Source of the DNA: Escherichia phage FL23
Strand: one strand, 5' to 3'
Sequence record: PP400787
Length of the DNA stretch: 64,000 bases
The notes beneath the pieces are model-generated. The model ran no database searches. It saw nothing but the letters and a program-made list of their open reading frames with translations, and was not told the origin of the DNA. Of the stretch, positions 2 to 58,618 are shown piece by piece. Positions within the stretch are counted from its first letter, which is position 1; each line of letters begins with the position of its first letter. The position numbers were made by a program, and so were the translations under genes.

Positions 2-346
2 ACTGGTTGTGTATCTCAAGGACCGGTAGTAAATCAGTCTGATGTAGGAAAAATTGTAAACTGTTCAAGCAAATTTTATAATCCTAATGTCAAGTGTTAT
101 AAAGAAGCTCCAAAACAGACAGTAGAACAAATGCAGGCGAATTTTGACGAAGCTATTCGTCCAGATGAATCTGCTCAAGCATATCGTAATTCGGATGTAA
201 TTACACGCGAAGAAAAAATTGAAAATTACTGCGCCGTGCTTTGGGCAAATTGGGCTAATAATTACCAGTTGCGTACTGGTAAAAATGCTCCAATGGAGTA
301 TGTAGTGAATTCTTATAATTCATGCGTAAAAAATTTAACTAAGTGA
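2..346 (+). CDS. 3' part of an early ORF running off the window start (imm.1-position hypothetical protein)
   Basis: Frame open from position 2 to TAA at 344-346; lies directly upstream of imm. Confidence 0.5.
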   Translation, partial: TGCVSQGPVVNQSDVGKIVNCSSKFYNPNVKCYKEAPKQTVEQMQANFDEAIRPDESAQAYRNSDVITREEKIENYCAVLWANWANNYQLRTGKNAPMEYVVNSYNSCVKNLTK

Positions 347-353
347 GGAAAAC

Positions 354-605
354 ATGGAAACTTTAGTAGCAGGTTCAATTTTTATGGTTTTAGTTTCAGG
401 CGTGTTGGCTATTATTATATACATGCTTCCATGGTTCATCGCCTTGATGCGTGGGTCAAAATCGACAGTAGGAATCTTTTTCACGTCTTTACTGTTTAAC
501 TGGTCAATTATTGGTTGGTTTATTACATTTATTTGGTCAATTGCGGGTGAAACTAAAAAGTCTGCACAGCCAAATCAAGTAATTATCATCAGAGAGAAGG
601 AATGA
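354..605 (+). CDS. imm: Imm, membrane immunity (superinfection exclusion) protein, 83 aa
   Basis: 83-aa two-helix hydrophobic protein; size, sequence and position upstream of gene 42 match T4 Imm as recalled; GAGGA RBS. Confidence 0.8.
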   Translation: METLVAGSIFMVLVSGVLAIIIYMLPWFIALMRGSKSTVGIFFTSLLFNWSIIGWFITFIWSIAGETKKSAQPNQVIIIREKE

Positions 606-751
606 AAAGCAAAATTATAGCAGTGTTGCTTTTAATCTTGATGATTATAATAAGTATATACTATAGTGTAACGGTTCCTCTTATGATTCCAACTATTATT
701 TTAGGTTGGGGTTTATTACTGTTACAAGTTAAATATGAATGTATCAATTGA
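602..751 (+). CDS. small hydrophobic membrane peptide, 49 aa
   Basis: ATG overlaps imm stop (ATGA); almost entirely hydrophobic; ends 8 nt before gene 42. Confidence 0.4.
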   Translation: MKSKIIAVLLLILMIIISIYYSVTVPLMIPTIILGWGLLLLQVKYECIN

Positions 752-758
752 GGTTTAA

Positions 759-1499
759 ATGATTAGTGACTCTATGACAGTTGAAGAAATCCGTCTTCAT
801 TTGGGGCTTGCATTAAAGGAAAAAGATTTCGTAGTTGATAAAACTGGTGTTAAAACTATTGAAATTATTGGCGCATCATTTGTAGCAGATGAACCGTTTA
901 TTTTTGGCGCTCTTAATGATGAATACATTCAGCGTGAACTTGAATGGTATAAATCTAAGAGCTTGTTTGTTAAAGATATTCCAGGTGAAACACCAAAGAT
1001 TTGGCAGCAGGTAGCATCTTCTAAAGGCGAAATTAACTCGAATTATGGTTGGGCTATCTGGTCAGAAGATAACTATGCTCAGTATGATATGTGTTTAGCT
1101 GAACTTGGTCAAAATCCTGATTCTCGACGTGGTATCATGATTTATACTCGTCCATCCATGCAATTTGACTACAATAAAGATGGTATGTCAGATTTCATGT
1201 GTACGAATACAGTACAGTACCTGATTCGTGATAAGAAAGTCAATGCAGTAGTAAGCATGCGCTCAAATGACGTGGTCTTCGGATTCCGTAATGATTATGC
1301 ATGGCAAAAATACGTATTAGATAAATTAGTATCTGATTTGAATGCAGGCGATTCAACTCGTCAGTATAAAGCAGGTTCTATTATATGGAATGTTGGAAGT
1401 CTTCATGTATATTCTCGTCATTTTTACTTGGTTGATCATTGGTGGAATACTGGCGAAACTCATATTGTGAAAAAAGATTATAACGGTGAGTGGAAATGA
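759..1499 (+). CDS. 42: dCMP hydroxymethylase (gp42), 246 aa
   Basis: Near-identical to T4 gp42 as recalled; thymidylate-synthase-like fold. Confidence 0.93.
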   Translation: MISDSMTVEEIRLHLGLALKEKDFVVDKTGVKTIEIIGASFVADEPFIFGALNDEYIQRELEWYKSKSLFVKDIPGETPKIWQQVASSKGEINSNYGWAIWSEDNYAQYDMCLAELGQNPDSRRGIMIYTRPSMQFDYNKDGMSDFMCTNTVQYLIRDKKVNAVVSMRSNDVVFGFRNDYAWQKYVLDKLVSDLNAGDSTRQYKAGSIIWNVGSLHVYSRHFYLVDHWWNTGETHIVKKDYNGEWK

Positions 1500-2338
1500 T
1501 TCAATTCGTAATTCCAAGTTATCAACGTGTAGGGGCAGTTTCTGCCCTTGATATGTTTCCGACTGATTATGAACCACATATTGTAGTACGTGAACACGAA
1601 GAAGAAGCTTATTATGATGCTTATGGGTCTAGAGCTAAAATTGTAACTATTCCTGATGATGTTAATGGAATTGCCGGTACTCGTAAAGCAATTACTGATA
1701 TGTATGCAGGTCAACGAATCTGGATGATTGACGATGATACTACTATTCGTATGAGTTCAATACGAAAGAGAGACGATAAACGGCGCGTAGATAAAATTAA
1801 TCAATTAACTCGTGAACAGTTCTATGAATTAATTCAATACGTTGAGGATGCTATGGATTGCGGGTATTATCACGGTCATGCTCGTCTACCAATTTTTAAA
1901 ATTACTTCATCTTGGGGTAATTATCGTGAAAACTCATATGGATTCACGAATACATGGTATGACCTCGGAAAACTTACGACAGAACAAATTGGGTATGGAA
2001 AAATTGATTTATGTGAAGATATGTATGCATTTCTCAATTTAATTAATCAAGGTTATCCGCATTTGGCCTTGTTCAAATATCTAGTTGTATCTGGAAAATC
2101 ACACGCTCCCGGTGGGTGTAGTTCAATTCGTAGTAATTCTAAACATAATAGAGCTCTTGAGCAAATCAATAGAGAGTTTCCAGAGCAAGCTCGTTGGAAA
2201 ACATCGAATATTGAAAAACGAAAATCGTTGGGTGAAGAAGACGAGCCATTAAAGGTTCTTCGCATGTGTGTTTCGCGTAAAGAAAAATCAGAAGCATTTC
2301 ATAAGTTTAATGCTATTCATCCAATAGCAGTTGATTAA
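1496..2338 (+). CDS. DNA glycosyltransferase occupying the beta-gt locus (GT-A-like, DxD motif; candidate beta-glucosyl-HMC-alpha-glucosyltransferase type), 280 aa
   Basis: ATG overlaps gene 42 stop (ATGA); WMIDDDTT DxD-type motif; unrelated to T4 beta-gt (351 aa) but in the same slot between 42 and uvsX. Confidence 0.6.
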   Translation: MIQFVIPSYQRVGAVSALDMFPTDYEPHIVVREHEEEAYYDAYGSRAKIVTIPDDVNGIAGTRKAITDMYAGQRIWMIDDDTTIRMSSIRKRDDKRRVDKINQLTREQFYELIQYVEDAMDCGYYHGHARLPIFKITSSWGNYRENSYGFTNTWYDLGKLTTEQIGYGKIDLCEDMYAFLNLINQGYPHLALFKYLVVSGKSHAPGGCSSIRSNSKHNRALEQINREFPEQARWKTSNIEKRKSLGEEDEPLKVLRMCVSRKEKSEAFHKFNAIHPIAVD

Positions 2339-22166: not shown

Positions 22167-22195
22167 TTTACTTTACCACAAGGATGTGGTATAAT
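22166..22195 (+). promoter_or_regulatory. T4-type early promoter
   Basis: gtttactttaccacaaggatgtggtataat. Confidence 0.65.
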
Positions 22196-51800: not shown

Positions 51801-52080
51801 ATATAAATCCGACTTTGATGTTAATATTCACCGTGGTACATTTTGGGGAAATTACGTCGGTAAAGATGCTGGCAGCCGGGAGGCTGCCATTGAATTATTC
51901 AAAAAAGATTTTATACGTCGAATTAAATCCGGAGAAATAACTAAAGCACATTTAGAGCCTTTACGTGGAATGAGGCTAGGATGCACATGTAAACCAAAGC
52001 CGTGTCATGGTGATATAATAGCTCATATAGTTAACCGATTGTTTAAAGACGATTTTCAAGTTGAGGACTTATGCAATTAA
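51754..52080 (+). CDS. hypothetical protein, 108 aa
   Basis: ORF; overlaps both neighbours. Confidence 0.5.
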
Positions 52081-53504
52081 TTAATGTTATCAAAAGTAGT
52101 GGTGTTTCTCAGAGCTTTGACCCGCAAAAAATTATTAAAGTTTTATCTTGGGCAGCTGAGGGAACATCAGTAGATCCTTATGAATTATATGAAAATATTA
52201 AATCATATCTCCGTGATGGAATGACCACTGATGATATTCAGACTATTGTCATTAAGGCCGCTGCGAATTCTATTTCGGTTGAAGAACCTGATTATCAATA
52301 TGTAGCTGCACGCTGTTTAATGTTTGCTCTTCGTAAGCATGTTTATGGGCAGTATGAACCACGTTCATTTATTGACCATATTTCTTACTGTGTAAATGAA
52401 GGTAAATATGACCCTGAATTATTGTCAAAATATTCAGCAGAAGAAATTACATTTTTAGAATCAAAAATTAAGCACGAACGGGATATGGAATTTACTTATT
52501 CCGGGGCGATGCAATTAAAAGAAAAATATCTAGTTAAAGATAAAACCACTGGTCAAATTTATGAAACTCCGCAGTTTGCATTTATGACTATTGGAATGGC
52601 ACTGCATCAAGATGAACCTGTTGACAGATTAAAACATGTTATTCGTTTTTATGAAGCAGTATCTACTCGACAGATTTCACTGCCAACTCCTATTATGGCT
52701 GGTTGCCGTACTCCAACTCGACAGTTTAGTTCATGCGTTGTTATTGAAGCAGGTGATTCGCTGAAGTCTATCAATAAGGCTTCTGCTTCAATTGTTGAGT
52801 ATATTTCTAAACGAGCTGGAATTGGCATTAACGTTGGTATGATTCGTGCTGAAGGTTCTAAGATTGGCACAGGTGAAGTGCGTCATACTGGCGTTATTCC
52901 TTTTTGGAAACATTTTCAGACTGCTGTTAAATCATGCTCACAGGGTGGAATTCGTGGCGGCGCTGCTACTGCTTATTATCCTATTTGGCATTTGGAAGTT
53001 GAAAATCTTCTCGTTTTGAAAAATAACAAAGGCGTAGAAGAAAACCGTATCCGTCATATGGATTATGGCGTCCAGCTGAATGATTTGATGATGGAACGTT
53101 TTGGAAAGAACGACTACATCACTTTGTTCAGTCCACATGAAATGGGTGGCGAACTTTATTATTCTTATTTTAAAGACCAAGACCGTTTCCGTGAATTGTA
53201 CGAAGCAGCAGAAAAAGACCCTAATATTCGTAAAAAGCGTATTAAAGCTCGTGAACTATTTGAATTGCTCATGACTGAACGTTCAGGAACAGCAAGGATT
53301 TATGTACAGTTCATTGATAATACGAATAACTATACTCCGTTTATTCGTGAAAAGGCGCCTATTCGTCAGAGTAACTTGTGCTGTGAAATTGCTATTCCAA
53401 CAAATGATGTGAATAGCCAACAAACCCGTTTAATCAAAATTAAGAAGTCGGATGTAGCTAAGTTTTATGAAGCTAATCCTGGCGGTATAATTCAAAGCAA
53501 ATAA
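52071..53504 (+). CDS. nrdA: ribonucleotide reductase alpha subunit, N-terminal fragment (NrdA-a), 477 aa
   Basis: Class Ia RNR alpha homology through active-site NLCCEIAIPTNDV, then ~30 unrelated codons and stop. Confidence 0.85.
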   Translation: MQLINVIKSSGVSQSFDPQKIIKVLSWAAEGTSVDPYELYENIKSYLRDGMTTDDIQTIVIKAAANSISVEEPDYQYVAARCLMFALRKHVYGQYEPRSFIDHISYCVNEGKYDPELLSKYSAEEITFLESKIKHERDMEFTYSGAMQLKEKYLVKDKTTGQIYETPQFAFMTIGMALHQDEPVDRLKHVIRFYEAVSTRQISLPTPIMAGCRTPTRQFSSCVVIEAGDSLKSINKASASIVEYISKRAGIGINVGMIRAEGSKIGTGEVRHTGVIPFWKHFQTAVKSCSQGGIRGGAATAYYPIWHLEVENLLVLKNNKGVEENRIRHMDYGVQLNDLMMERFGKNDYITLFSPHEMGGELYYSYFKDQDRFRELYEAAEKDPNIRKKRIKARELFELLMTERSGTARIYVQFIDNTNNYTPFIREKAPIRQSNLCCEIAIPTNDVNSQQTRLIKIKKSDVAKFYEANPGGIIQSK

Positions 53505-53549: not shown

Positions 53550-54260
53550 ATGGATTATTTTAAAATTTACAATAACCTTATTTCTAAAGCTAAGAATAGA
53601 AAATTAGATTGCTATACCGAATCACACCATATTATACCTCTGTGTATTGGTGGTTCTGATACAAAGGAAAACCTGGTAGATTTGACACCAGAAGAGCATT
53701 ACATAGCTCATCAATTATTAGTAAAGATATATCCAGATAATCATAAATTGATATTTGCCGCTAATATGATGTGTGTTTATTCTAAAGATAATATTGAACG
53801 AAAGAACACCAATAAACGCCATGGGTGGCTTAGAAGAAAATTGGCTATTTCTGTATCTGAAAATAATAAAGGCAAACCAGCTTGGAACAAAGGTATTCCT
53901 ATGTCTCCAGAAGTTAAATCTCGACTTCAAACATCTTGGGTGTTTACATTTCCGGATGGTCATGAGGAAATTCATCGAGGTCTTAACGAATTTTGTAAAG
54001 AGCATAATTTAAATCCATCTGCAATGTCAGCCGTTTGTAAAGGTAAACGGTCGCATCACAAAGGATTTAAGTGTAAGAAATTGGATAAGATTTCAGAGCT
54101 TGATAATTTAGTTTTCGTCAGTAAACCTCATCCAAAGGGATTAAAACCCCATAACTTAATTGCTGTAAAAATAAACGGTATAGAATATCAATCAATACAT
54201 CGAGCATCTAAAGCTTTAGGAATTACTAGAAAAAAGGTAGAAGAATTAAATGAATATTGA
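53550..54260 (+). CDS. HNH homing endonuclease (Mob-like) inserted within nrdA, 236 aa
   Basis: HNH motif ESHHIIP...KENLV...EEHYIAH; C-terminal NUMOD-like motifs (GKPAWNKG, IEYQSIHRASKALGI). Confidence 0.8.
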   Translation: MDYFKIYNNLISKAKNRKLDCYTESHHIIPLCIGGSDTKENLVDLTPEEHYIAHQLLVKIYPDNHKLIFAANMMCVYSKDNIERKNTNKRHGWLRRKLAISVSENNKGKPAWNKGIPMSPEVKSRLQTSWVFTFPDGHEEIHRGLNEFCKEHNLNPSAMSAVCKGKRSHHKGFKCKKLDKISELDNLVFVSKPHPKGLKPHNLIAVKINGIEYQSIHRASKALGITRKKVEELNEY

Positions 54261-55239
54261 TTATGAATTTGTAGATGAATTTTACGAAGATGATGAGTAT
54301 ACTACAATAAAAGTTATTGAAAACAAGGGAGAAGTGGGGCTTTGTACTCTCTCTGCATTCGTACTAGATAATTTTGACTGGCAAGACCAAGATAAAATTA
54401 ATGAATTGGCAGAAGTTCAAGTTCGTGCTCTTGATAATCTTTTGGATTACCAAGGATATCCAGTTCCTGAAGCAGAAAAAGCTAAAAAGCGTCGTAACCT
54501 TGGTGTAGGTGTTACTAACTATGCAGCTTGGCTGGCAAGTAACTTTGCTTCTTATGAAGATGCTAACGATTTAACACATGAACTATTTGAGAGATTACAG
54601 TATGGACTCATTAAAGCATCCATTAAGCTCGCCAAAGAAAAAGGACCTTGCGAATATTATTCAGACACTCGTTGGTCTCGAGGCGAACTACCTATCGACT
54701 GGTACAATAAAAAGATTGACCAAATCGCAGCTCCAAAATACGTTTGTGACTGGTCGTCGCTGCGGGAAGACCTTAAGCTCTTTGGCATCCGTAATAGCAC
54801 ATTATCAGCACTTATGCCATGTGAGTCATCTTCCCAAGTTTCTAACAGTACAAACGGTATCGAGCCTCCACGTGGACCGGTAAGTGTTAAAGAATCAAAA
54901 GAGGGTTCATTTAATCAAGTTGTTCCGAATATTGAGCATAACATAGACCTTTACGACTATACATGGAAATTAGCTAAGAAAGGTAATAAACCTTATCTTA
55001 CGCAGGTAGCTATTATGCTGAAATGGGTATGTCAATCGGCTTCAGCGAATACATATTATGACCCACAGATTTTTCCAAAAGGAAAGGTTCCAATGTCAAT
55101 AATGATTGATGATATGCTATACGGATGGTATTATGGCATTAAAAATTTCTATTATCATAATACCCGCGATGGTTCTGGTACTGATGATTATGAAATAGAA
55201 ACTCCAAAAGCAGATGATTGTTCATCCTGTAAATTATGA
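54250..55239 (+). CDS. nrdA: ribonucleotide reductase alpha subunit, C-terminal fragment (NrdA-b), 329 aa
   Basis: From GEVGLCTLSAF colinear with NrdA C-terminal half to the CxxC tail; own ATG overlapping the HNH stop. Confidence 0.85.
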   Translation: MNIDYEFVDEFYEDDEYTTIKVIENKGEVGLCTLSAFVLDNFDWQDQDKINELAEVQVRALDNLLDYQGYPVPEAEKAKKRRNLGVGVTNYAAWLASNFASYEDANDLTHELFERLQYGLIKASIKLAKEKGPCEYYSDTRWSRGELPIDWYNKKIDQIAAPKYVCDWSSLREDLKLFGIRNSTLSALMPCESSSQVSNSTNGIEPPRGPVSVKESKEGSFNQVVPNIEHNIDLYDYTWKLAKKGNKPYLTQVAIMLKWVCQSASANTYYDPQIFPKGKVPMSIMIDDMLYGWYYGIKNFYYHNTRDGSGTDDYEIETPKADDCSSCKL

Positions 55240-56848
55240 TATAATTACCACAAGGATGTGGTTAACTAAGAATAACGCTATGTTTGATAATATATACAAA
55301 AACGGAAAGTTTCTTCCATTTGGAGAAGAAAAACTTAAATCTAGACTAACAGAAGAAGATAAAGCTCTTCTAACTGATGGAATAGATTTTAAGCTCAATG
55401 TGTTCCAAATTATGGAAGGCATTGACATTAACGATCTAAAATGTGCAGTTTGTGGAAATTTCATTTCTCTGAAAACGGCAAAGAAACGTGTATTTCCAGC
55501 AACATGTAGTAAATCCTGCGCAGGGATATTTTTCGCGGATAAGAGAATTCAAAGCCGTGATACAAATTTTGGCGGAAAAGAAAAATATAAAAAATATTTG
55601 TCTGAACTTCAACGCAAAAATTCTTTAGAAAAATATGGAACAACTCATCAAAAAATTTCAAGAAATAAAAATAGAAAAACTTTAATTGAACGATATGGGG
55701 TAACGCATAATTCACAATTAGAAAGTGTGAAAGAAGCGAGAAAAGTTATAGAAAACGGTAAATCAGTTGATATTCTGAATTCTAGAAAATCTCGCGAAAA
55801 ATCTAAGAAGACTAAATTAAATTGGACTGAAGAATATAAGGCATCGTTATATTCATCTATAGGAAAATCTATTAAAAATAACGGTCATATTAATCATGAT
55901 ATACTAGATAAAATCAATTACAAAATTTCTATAGAAGAACTACAACAATTAGCAAATTGTTCTCGGATGACGGCTTATAGAGCTCTTTCATCCAAAGGAC
56001 TAATTGACGTTCATTATACTCAAAGTTCTATAGAGCAATTCATTTTAGATCTAGGATTTGATTGCGTAGAAACTAGAAAAATTATTCCTCCGTATGAATT
56101 AGATATTTACATTCCTGAGAAAAAATTGGCTATAGAATACGATGGAATTTATTGGCATTCTAGCGGGTCAAAGGAAACAGATAAAATTAAAGAAACTTAT
56201 CATTTGATGAAGACAGAGATGTGTGAAGCACAAGGAATTCAATTACTTCACATCTTCGAAAATGAATGGATTGATGATACAAAAAGAGAGATCTGGAAAT
56301 CCATTATAAAGCATAAATTAGGATTATCAGAAAGAATACCAGCCCGAAAATGCAAAGCGCGTTTTGTTAATAAGGATGAGGCAAAAGAATTTATTAATAA
56401 GAATCATCTTCAAGGATTTTGCTCGGGAGCTCATACGTATAAAGGACTTTATTACAATAATGAGTTAGTTCAAATTATTTCTATCGGTAAATCTAGATAT
56501 AGCTCAGGTGATGAACTTTTAAGGATGTGTTCAAAATTAGGGATTTGTGTTGTAGGAGGAGCCTCAAAATTATTAAAAGGAATTAATTGTCTATCTTATG
56601 GCAATCGAAGATGGTGCAGTACATTATCAAATGTTTATGACTCTGTCATGGAATTTAGTCATATCTCTGAGCCGTGTTATTGGTATGTCGATAAAGGAGA
56701 GGTATTTCACCGCTCGAGCTATATGAAACATAAGCTTAAAAACAAGCTTAAAAATTATGATGATACAATAACTGAAGTAGAAAATTGTTATGCAAATGGT
56801 CTTAGAAGAATCTGGGACTGTGGAAATTTAGTTTACAGGACAAAATAA
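55214..56848 (+). CDS. large putative nuclease: Zn ribbon, YG-TH repeats, Vsr/DUF559-like PD-(D/E)xK core and uncharacterised C-terminal domain (up to 544 aa; likely start 55256 or 55280)
   Basis: Motifs CAVCGNF...CSKSC, EKYGTTH/ERYGVTHNSQ repeats, YELDIYIPEKKLAIEYDGIYWHS...GIQLLHIFENEW. Confidence 0.6.
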   Translation: MIVHPVNYDIITTRMWLTKNNAMFDNIYKNGKFLPFGEEKLKSRLTEEDKALLTDGIDFKLNVFQIMEGIDINDLKCAVCGNFISLKTAKKRVFPATCSKSCAGIFFADKRIQSRDTNFGGKEKYKKYLSELQRKNSLEKYGTTHQKISRNKNRKTLIERYGVTHNSQLESVKEARKVIENGKSVDILNSRKSREKSKKTKLNWTEEYKASLYSSIGKSIKNNGHINHDILDKINYKISIEELQQLANCSRMTAYRALSSKGLIDVHYTQSSIEQFILDLGFDCVETRKIIPPYELDIYIPEKKLAIEYDGIYWHSSGSKETDKIKETYHLMKTEMCEAQGIQLLHIFENEWIDDTKREIWKSIIKHKLGLSERIPARKCKARFVNKDEAKEFINKNHLQGFCSGAHTYKGLYYNNELVQIISIGKSRYSSGDELLRMCSKLGICVVGGASKLLKGINCLSYGNRRWCSTLSNVYDSVMEFSHISEPCYWYVDKGEVFHRSSYMKHKLKNKLKNYDDTITEVENCYANGLRRIWDCGNLVYRTK

Positions 56849-57523
56849 TGAGTACAGTTTTTAATACTAAACAGGTCGATGTTTTAAAAGAACCTATGTT
56901 TTTTGGTTCAGGTCTTGGTATTGCGCGTTATGATATTCAACGGCATCGAGTATTTGAAGAACTTATTGAACGTCAGCTCTCGTTTTTCTGGCGTCCTGAA
57001 GAAGTAAACTTGATGATGGATGCTGCACAGTTTAATAAGCTTCCTCAGTATCAACAAAATATTTTTACTAATAATCTGAAGTATCAATCATTACTTGATA
57101 GTATTCAAGGTCGTGCGCCGTCTGCTGTACTTATGCCATTGCTTTCAGACCCAAGCCTTGATACATGGGTTGCTACATGGACTTTTAGTGAAACTATTCA
57201 CAGTCGTTCATATACTCATATCATGCGAAATCTTTATACTGATCCGTCAAAGGTATTTGATGAGATTGTATTAGATGAAGCTATTATGAAACGTGCTGAA
57301 TCTATCGGTCGTTATTATGATGATGTTCTGACTAAAACCCGTGAATGGGAAAATGCTAAAGAATTTGTAGAACTAGCTAAAGAATCTCCTGATGCCGACT
57401 TTCGTTTAAACCGAGCTATTAAACAAGAAGCCGAAGCTAAACGTGCTTTAATGAAATCTCTTTACCTCTGTTTGCACGTTATTAATGCCTTAGAAGCTAT
57501 TCGTTTTTATGTATCTTTTGCGT
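56848..57523 (+). CDS. nrdB: ribonucleotide reductase beta subunit, exon 1
   Basis: NrdB homology to ...IRFYVSFA; frame is then interrupted; junction assigned so the split codon T|GT gives the conserved Cys. Confidence 0.85.
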
Positions 57524-58115
57524 AAAATGCGCCTTTAAACGGTAACGTTTATCGAAAACTCCTTTAATTGCTGGAAAGTCCTTTATAGGAAAACTAGCAG
57601 CCAAGGTTTTGCTTGCACCTTTAATTAGTATAATATGATTATACTTTTAAGAGGATGCACAATTGAACTATAGAAAAATTTGGATAGATGCTAACGGACC
57701 TACCTAAAGATTCTGATGGAAGACCATAAGAAAAGAACATCAGCAAAAACATTAGAAATGGTTAAGAATGGGACCCATCCTGCACAAAAAGAAATCACAT
57801 GTGATTTCTGCGGTCACATTGGTAAAGGTCCTGGATTTTATCTAAAACATAATGACAGATGTAAATTAAATCCAAATAGAATTCAATTGAATTGTCCATA
57901 TTGTGATAAGAAAGATTTATCACCATCAACATATAAACGATGGCACGGCGACAATTGCAAAGCAAGGTTCAACGACTAGTCTTCGGACGTAGGGTCAAGC
58001 GACTCGAAATGGGGAGAATCCCTCTGGGATTGTGATATAGTCTGGTCTGCATAGTAATATGTAGCAGTTCATAAGAGAACGGGTTGAGAATTAGCGAGCT
58101 CAATCGAACATAACG
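57524..58115 (+). mobile_element. nrdB group I intron (~592 nt) with truncated endonuclease ORF
   Basis: Non-coding insertion at the position of the T4 nrdB intron; 3' end ...GAACATAACG parallels td intron 3' end; boundaries approximate. Confidence 0.75.
57716..57979 (+). CDS. I-TevIII-like remnant (Cys-rich DNA-binding part, no HNH domain), 87 aa
   Basis: CDFCGH...CPYCDKK...C zinc-finger motifs only; inside the nrdB intron. Confidence 0.5.
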   Translation: MEDHKKRTSAKTLEMVKNGTHPAQKEITCDFCGHIGKGPGFYLKHNDRCKLNPNRIQLNCPYCDKKDLSPSTYKRWHGDNCKARFND

Positions 58116-58618
58116 GTACCTTTAACTTCCATAAAAACATGGAAATCATGGAAGGTAATGCCAAGATTATGAAGTTCATTGCACGTGATGAGCAGCTTCA
58201 TCTTAAAGGTACACAATATATTATTCGTCAACTTCAATCTGGTACTGATGGCGATGAATGGGTTAAAATTGCTCAAGAGTGCGAGCAAGAAGCAGTTGAT
58301 ATTTTCATGGAAGTTAACCGCCAAGAAAAAGATTGGGCAGTTCATTTATTTAAAGATGGCGATGTTCCTGGATTAAATACAAATAGCATGTGGAGCTTTA
58401 TTGATTACTTAACTGTATCTCGTATGAAACAGTGTGGTCTTCCATGCCCAATTACCGATGCTCCGGTTAAACACCCATATCCTTGGATTCGTGAATATCT
58501 TAATTCTGATAATGTTCAATCCGCGCCACAAGAAGTAGAACTGTCATCTTACCTTGTTGCGCAGATTGATAATGATGTTGATGATAAAGTTATGATGAGT
58601 TTTAAAAAATACTTTTAA
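58116..58618 (+). CDS. nrdB: ribonucleotide reductase beta subunit, exon 2
   Basis: Continues ...TFNFHKNMEIMEGNAKIMKFIARDEQLHL, colinear with NrdB. Confidence 0.85.

Follow-up and report, generated by a model that had tools for sequence, protein, structure and literature searches.

The hef gene of phage U5 is said to have been described by Sandegren, Nord & Sjoberg (Nucleic Acids Res 2005, 33:6203) as encoding a free-standing homing endonuclease. In papers citing that work, hef takes the place of mobE between the genes nrdA and nrdB, and a review states that nrdB is cut both by MobE and by Hef of U5 in phages that lack hef. MobE of T4, also a free-standing homing endonuclease, resides at the same nrdA-nrdB site and, according to this review, targets nrdB as well, but it has an unrelated HNH fold and motif, is much smaller and has no sequence similarity to Hef. 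In 2011, 'Hef type' endonucleases were included by the authors of the Vsr-like EDxHD family among its members, together with the intron-encoded enzyme I-Bth0305I (PDB 3R3P; PMC3239194), and genes of other phage genomes are now routinely annotated as 'Hef-like'. We analysed a stretch of 64,000 nucleotides (nt) of Escherichia phage FL23 (sequence record PP400787), here called the window. A previous interpretation made from these letters only, referred to below as the sequence-only reading, had pointed to a 1.6-kb open reading frame (ORF) between the C-terminal fragment of nrdA and nrdB, and the ORF is present there at 55214..56848 on the + strand with 544 codons, the nrdB ATG being at 56848. We conclude with a probability of roughly 90% that this ORF is hef, the free-standing homing endonuclease gene of T-even phages, located in the nrdA-nrdB spacer where T4 carries mobE. 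The gene itself is already known, and our additions are only a Mom-like domain at the C-terminus of its product and a corrected start codon.

In order to establish the identity of the ORF, we compared it to the 4.2-kb GenBank entry of phage U5 (AY262133), in which the gene is annotated as 'hef, Hef, homing endonuclease'. The two genes are 99.3% identical in DNA over 1635 nt, with 11 nt differences and 6 amino acid (aa) differences: A103S, R134H, N189H, R191K, S431T and I444V. None of these substitutions is at a conserved site. The genes of both phages have the same position between nrdA and nrdB, a leader with the same 18-nt sequence and an overlap with the start of nrdB; apart from the six substitutions, the window phage differs in that its nrdA is also split by an HNH gene. 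A megablast search of the ORF against phage genomes found the full gene in 16 records at 99.3-100% identity, and the copy in Escherichia phage FL44 is 100% identical to that of the window. Among the PHROGs, phrog_3339 'homing endonuclease' matched the window protein over its full length (E 7e-152). The sequence-only reading raised the possibility that the ORF belongs to a new class of mobile nuclease. It was right that the nuclease is mobile and differs from Seg and Mob; the ORF does not represent a new class, since hef of U5 has been known for about 20 years and the EDxHD placement dates from 2011.

We then compared the nrdA-nrdB interval among phages. In T2, nrdA and nrdB are 51 nt apart without any insertion, and the window is homologous to T2 up to 55246 and again from 56842 onward, which defines the cassette given in Table 1. 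The guanine-plus-cytosine content is 31.2% in the cassette vs 36-37.5% in its flanks. An uninterrupted nrdA-nrdB junction was found in 407 of 543 phage records and hef in 16 records, and T4 carries mobE at the site as previously stated; the interval therefore displays the presence and absence that a comparison of this kind had been proposed to look for. Yersinia phage phiR1-RT has an ortholog at the same site with 65% identity to Hef, and phage LIMEstone1 is described as having Hef-like genes at four other loci. The two flanks are not equally similar to T2. The nrdA side is 97.7% identical over its last 904 nt, whereas the nrdB side, with about 90% identity over the first 486 nt, is much more diverged. 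The divergence on the nrdB side could represent co-conversion tracts, or a polymorphism that protects a cleavage site and confers immunity to Hef, MobE or I-TevIII. Along nrdB exon 1, compared to T2 (L002 3576..4253), mismatches form clusters at 56948..56997 (13 per 50 nt) and at 57298..57497 (11-26 per 50 nt), the latter just before the intron. The hef stop codon TAA overlaps the nrdB ATG (TAATG), and nrdB is probably translationally coupled to hef because of this overlap.

The central part of the protein resembles Vsr-type nucleases. Taken alone, the window protein gave sub-threshold Pfam matches to MTES_1575 (E 1.5e-4) and DUF559 (E 0.011), and its best match among PDB sequences was the catalytic domain of I-Bth0305I (3R3P, E 0.03). 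A profile of 50 relatives, the set to which the residue counts below refer, retrieved 3R3P from the PDB sequences at E 1.8e-4 as the sole significant match. Hef relatives have Pfam matches to Vsr, MTES_1575 and DUF559, and a Foldseek search of the full-length structural model against viral structures returned Vsr-type 'DNA mismatch endonuclease' proteins (E ~5e-5). The Vsr/DUF559-like nuclease region that the sequence-only reading had placed here is confirmed, with a PD-(D/E)xK-derived core, by the profile match and by the invariance of the predicted catalytic residues. In the YELDIYIP…LAIEYDGIYWHS block, all 50 sequences share D297, E308 and H315. The profile alignment equates D297 with the metal-binding D196 of I-Bth0305I (D51 of Vsr) and H315 with its general base H213 (H69 of Vsr), so that this Asp and this His are kept between the two enzymes; N208 of I-Bth0305I corresponds to a position that is D or N in the Hef family. 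The first Glu of the EDxHD motif (E170; E25 of Vsr) falls in a weakly aligned region, where the family consensus is SxxExE and the window protein has S/Q with a Glu 2 residues on. On the basis of this homology, the Vsr-like domain is predicted to be the catalytic part of Hef. Residues K333, T334, H346, E351 and W352 are also invariant in the nuclease domain of Hef and lie outside the published motif. No GIY-YIG or HNH family was found in the window protein by the Pfam scan at E<=1, which agrees with the previous observation that its architecture is unlike that of the T4 endonucleases Seg (GIY-YIG) and Mob (HNH). We considered assignment to the HNH class, as in the label 'HNH endonuclease' of phrog_559, and rejected it as a naming artefact; no HNH motif was found, and another paper reports only a VSR signature in that PHROG.

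Upstream of the nuclease domain, several modules were recognized. The C4 zinc ribbon noticed in the sequence-only reading is well supported by its relatives. Its cysteines C77, C80, C98 and C102 are kept in 50/50, 49/50, 50/50 and 49/50 relatives, respectively, and were also invariant or nearly so in a separate alignment of 35 relatives; some relatives of Hef match zinc-ribbon families of Pfam or are named in their source as, for instance, 'Zn ribbon protein'. The tandem short repeats reported with it correspond to a KYG..H/N repeat of variable copy number, with 1 to about 5 copies among aligned relatives. This repeat is modelled by Pfam DUF7487, which matched 41/50 family members, and is helical in the AlphaFold2 model. 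A following segment looks like a helix-turn-helix (HTH), as assorted HTH families are matched in relatives and the model has helices there. Like Hef, I-Bth0305I has an N-terminal DNA-binding region with a repeat and an HTH, although it uses NUMOD motifs where Hef has a zinc ribbon and DUF7487 repeats. Because of this analogy with the modular I-Bth0305I, we infer that the zinc ribbon, the KYG repeats and the HTH-like segment may together form the DNA-recognition part of Hef. I-Bth0305I is intron-encoded, has 266 aa and ends with its nuclease domain; in contrast, Hef is free-standing, is twice as long and has an extra C-terminal Mom-like domain.

In order to have a better insight into the C-terminal domain, to which the sequence-only reading had given separate status without assigning it, we used structure prediction together with profile comparison. 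The domain is separate, with about 175 aa in the models, and resembles the Mom/GNAT fold. The AlphaFold2 model of the full-length protein, made with an alignment of 50 sequences, had a mean predicted local distance difference test (pLDDT) score of 91.8 and a predicted template modelling score of 0.65; the last 178 residues modelled alone had a pLDDT of 93.1. In a Foldseek search of the PDB, phage Mu Mom (crystal structure 8BV8) came first at E 6.4e-7 and GNAT acetyltransferases came next; two methods gave Mom as the nearest solved structure. A profile of the Hef domain aligned to a profile of 111 Mom sequences at E 3.3e-5 over 128 columns. Simpler comparisons gave less. The Pfam Mom family (PF25680) had no match in the window protein even at E<=1, pairwise BLASTP of the domain against Mu Mom was not significant (E 2.7), and hhalign gave a weak match to one Mom sequence (E 0.004, probability 8%). 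Eight of the 50 relatives match PF25680 at E<=0.01, two of which (P0115 and P0053) are above the gathering score of 27.1 bits, and precomputed Pfam annotations display a Mom domain on some relatives of Hef. The convincing link to Mom therefore comes from the profile-profile comparison and the structure searches only. An exhaustive search with the domain found 13,314 cluster representatives at E<=0.001; in nearly all of the top 150, the Mom-like domain is at the C-terminus of a Hef-like protein of 450-680 aa, and it is the best conserved part of the Hef family. A metagenomic protein of 614 aa (P0318) has a Hef-type Mom-like domain (45% identity, E 1e-34) fused to LEM-3-like GIY-YIG and NUMOD3 (residues 99-275 and 302-447). 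The Mom-like module is thus associated with two homing-nuclease types that are unrelated to each other. Our literature search found no paper describing Hef-type enzymes with a Mom or GNAT domain, and nothing relevant on DUF7487 or PF25680.

Regarding the translation start, the longest reading begins with an ATG at 55214 that is located within nrdA. We consider the start to be probably the ATG at 55280 (M23) instead, because the aligned homologs (34/34) all start at the residue equivalent to M23, because the phiR1-RT ortholog has a strong Shine-Dalgarno sequence (AGGAGG) and an upstream ATG in another reading frame, and because the codon of T2 that matches M1 of the window is AAG. The leader of phiR1-RT has the order nrdA stop, TATAAT, hairpin, AGGAGG, 6 bases and ATG (MFDNIF). 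In the window, a Shine-Dalgarno-like UAAGAA can be read directly 7 nt upstream of the ATG at 55280. The deposited start codon would then probably be 22 codons too early, both in the U5 record (L001 237..302) and in the records copying it.

The leader between the nrdA stop and this ATG contains the 18-mer TTACCACAAGGATGTGGT, which has exactly 2 copies in the window (at 22173 and 55245) vs 0 expected by chance. The copy at 55245 is found just within the left edge of the hef cassette, and the U5 hef leader has the identical sequence; at the same leader position, the hairpins of T2 and phiR1-RT differ in sequence. The copy at 22173 is the spacer between a GTTTAC -35 element and a TATAAT -10 element of a consensus promoter downstream of the topoisomerase large-subunit gene (gene 39), whereas at 55245 a TATAATT stands before the 18-mer and not after it. 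Neither a -35 nor a -10 element is correctly placed at the 18-mer of the hef leader. A scan for sigma-70 promoters and terminators around this leader found no promoter at the 18-mer and no terminator, with counts within the expectation from shuffles. The 18-mer hairpin is present in the minimum-free-energy (MFE) fold of the leader RNA (z -0.5). The leader hairpins had z values of -0.5 to -1.3 compared to shuffled sequences and are thus not unusually stable. The sequence-only reading was correct about a repeat upstream of the ORF, and the repeat is in fact exact. Its interpretation as a degenerate early promoter or recombination scar was rejected as unsupported, as the sequence common to both sites is confined to the spacer between the promoter elements downstream of gene 39.

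Table 1. Features of the hef locus. Positions are those of the window; residue numbers follow the 544-aa reading.
Feature	Position	Strand	Basis
hef ORF, longest reading, 544 aa	55214..56848	+	ORF listing; same extent as annotated for U5 hef (AY262133, coding sequence (CDS) 237..1871)
Likely true hef CDS, 522 aa, starts MFDNIY	55280..56848	+	Homolog starts; Shine-Dalgarno of phiR1-RT
Exact 18-nt repeat of 22173..22190, hairpin ACCACA-AGGA-TGTGGT	55245..55262	+	Repeat count; MFE fold; identical in U5
C4 zinc ribbon (C77, C80, C98, C102)	55442..55519	+	Residue conservation in relatives
Two copies of the KYG..H/N helical repeat (EKYGTTH / ERYGVTH; DUF7487-type), presumed DNA-binding	55613..55738	+	Alignment; Pfam; AlphaFold2 model
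HTH-like segment (…ELQQLANCSRMTAYRAL…), putative	55919..55993	+	Weak HTH_11 and UPF0175 matches; inference only
Vsr-like (EDxHD-type) nuclease domain; D297, E308, H315, H330, K333, H346, E351 invariant	56012..56314	+	Pfam; PDB profile match; conservation; viral structures; literature
Mom-like GNAT-fold domain	56312..56845	+	Foldseek; profile-profile comparison
hef cassette relative to the empty site of T2, replacing 38 nt of spacer	55247..56841	+	T2 homology ends at 55246, resumes at 56842
Left flank, nrdA C-terminal fragment (homing flank)	54250..55239	+	ORF listing
Right flank, nrdB exon 1	56848..57525	+	ORF listing

Homology, published work and distribution all support the reading of hef as a homing endonuclease gene. 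If a relative lacking hef infects the same cell, Hef would cut the genome of this rival within nrdB or adjacent to it, as the literature reports for the 99%-identical U5 protein, and recombinational repair would then copy hef together with flanking markers from the genome that carries it. Homing of this kind would result in a patchy distribution and in a near-identical cassette in otherwise different phages. Some of our results weigh against this reading. The window protein alone has no Pfam match above the gathering threshold, and the NCBIfam scan matched no family or model. The last Asp of EDxHD (D222 of I-Bth0305I; D97 of Vsr) corresponds to H330 (codon 56201..56203), which is His in 50/50 relatives, and the nearby D323 is Asp in 23/50 relatives only. 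In addition, the Mom-like domain makes up about one third of Hef, and the simple homing model gives it no role. Because the D222 position is an invariant His, the Hef active site is, as judged from the alignment, a variant of the I-Bth0305I prototype within the EDxHD family. It is also possible, if somewhat unlikely, that hef is mainly a weapon of competition or exclusion, that is, a nuclease effector degrading the DNA of co-infecting relatives, and not a selfish homing element. Marker exclusion of related phages is attributed to T-even homing endonucleases in a review, and hef, which is probably coupled in translation to nrdB, sits tightly within an essential operon. However, this would not be a distinct mechanism, as site-specific cleavage and repair from the genome carrying hef yields exclusion and homing alike, and presence or absence with clean boundaries is the classic signature of homing. 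That the window hef is a decaying, inactive remnant, comparable to the defective I-TevIII of the neighbouring nrdB intron, seems to us highly improbable. Although free-standing endonuclease genes commonly degenerate after fixation and a defective I-TevIII-like ORF of 87 aa is found 0.9 kb downstream, the hef ORF is full length, has just 6 conservative substitutions compared to U5 Hef and retains all residues invariant in the family, and its AlphaFold2 model is confident throughout.

The homing endonuclease reading leaves room for a second function in the Mom-like domain. This domain might bind DNA and flip bases, mediate dimerisation, sense a ligand or act as a transferase. Mom transfers glycine from Gly-transfer RNA (Gly-tRNA) to N6 of adenine in double-stranded DNA (Silva et al. 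2026; PMC13219725), and the same work lists R111, S124, D149 and R151 of Mom as essential and H58, Y59 and Y159 as important. We consider it unlikely that Hef is bifunctional, with DNA cleavage and a second action of the Mom-like GNAT domain on DNA at the target or close to it. For this second action, the domain would be an active acyl- or aminoacyl-transferase, or else a reader that flips bases and relies on the same pocket; its purpose could be, for example, marking or protection of the donor allele, a bias of repair or recognition of the site. Besides the closeness of Mu Mom in structure and profile comparisons, the strong conservation and very wide spread of the domain and its fusion to a GIY-YIG nuclease, the pocket residues argue for this. 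Mom H58, R111, R151 and Y159 are matched by Hef H398 (49/50 relatives), R437 (49/50), R466 (50/50) and Y475 (47/50). Hef also has a conserved Gly-rich loop, GGAS451, where GNATs bind the cofactor phosphate; S451 is invariant and is at the N-terminus of helix alpha-3 after the GG motif, and it is likely the counterpart of Mom S124, at the site of the cofactor-contacting Ser in GNATs and Mom. On the other hand, the essential D149 of Mom is Asn in the window Hef (N464), with Asn in 36 and Asp in only 14 of the 50 relatives. Tyr is not conserved at the position of Y59 (L399 in Hef), W48 is not conserved in the Hef family alignment, and the alignment leaves S124 itself in an unaligned loop of Hef. 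The lack of a Pfam Mom match in the window protein points in the same direction, GNAT folds are often reused as non-catalytic modules for binding or dimerisation, and no such activity of Hef was found in the literature. Compared to Mu Mom (PDB 8BV8), which is a stand-alone protein, the domain of Hef is a fused C-terminal module, and the GNAT-type Gly-rich loop is absent from Mom. Any catalytic or pocket-dependent role for the Mom-like domain is unlikely. The wider proposal, which we regard as quite doubtful, is that this domain functions in ligand binding or catalysis, either by transferring acyl or aminoacyl groups to DNA or by reading flipped adenines in it, and that Hef-type enzymes would then be a widespread class of mobile elements in which a nuclease is combined with a DNA-modifying or modification-sensing function. 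The module has also been recruited by GIY-YIG homing nucleases.

The surroundings of hef contain other mobile elements, and together with hef there are three within 6 kb: an HNH gene in nrdA, hef, and an intron in nrdB. The nrdA gene is split by an HNH-type endonuclease gene of 236 aa, with its N-part at 52071..53504, the HNH ORF at 53550..54260 and the C-part being the left flank of Table 1. Because the Rfam scan of the split nrdA found no group I intron there, the arrangement looks like a 'gene in pieces', as in nrdA/mobE of Aeromonas phage Aeh1. The same split nrdA is found in 34 phage records (FL44, vB_EcoM_112, fPS-2, F2 and others) with two nrdA CDSs annotated, whereas nrdA is intact in T2 and T4. 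The group I intron of nrdB occupies 57526..58138, and Rfam RF00028 matched it at 57824..58064 with 34 bits (gathering score 50; E 8e-6). The intron has an ORF of 87 aa at 57716..57979, with the length and relative position of the T4 CDS annotated as 'I-TevIII homing endonuclease (defective)'.

For the T-even phages, hef is a textbook case of different selfish nucleases competing for one ribonucleotide-reductase locus. For the Hef family, about a third of an experimentally studied enzyme is a Mom-like GNAT domain of which we found no mention in the literature. Since Mom has been shown to modify adenine in double-stranded DNA using a charged tRNA, the Mom-like pocket conserved in thousands of homing-endonuclease relatives offers a starting point, cheap to test, for understanding how the family recognises DNA or marks it.

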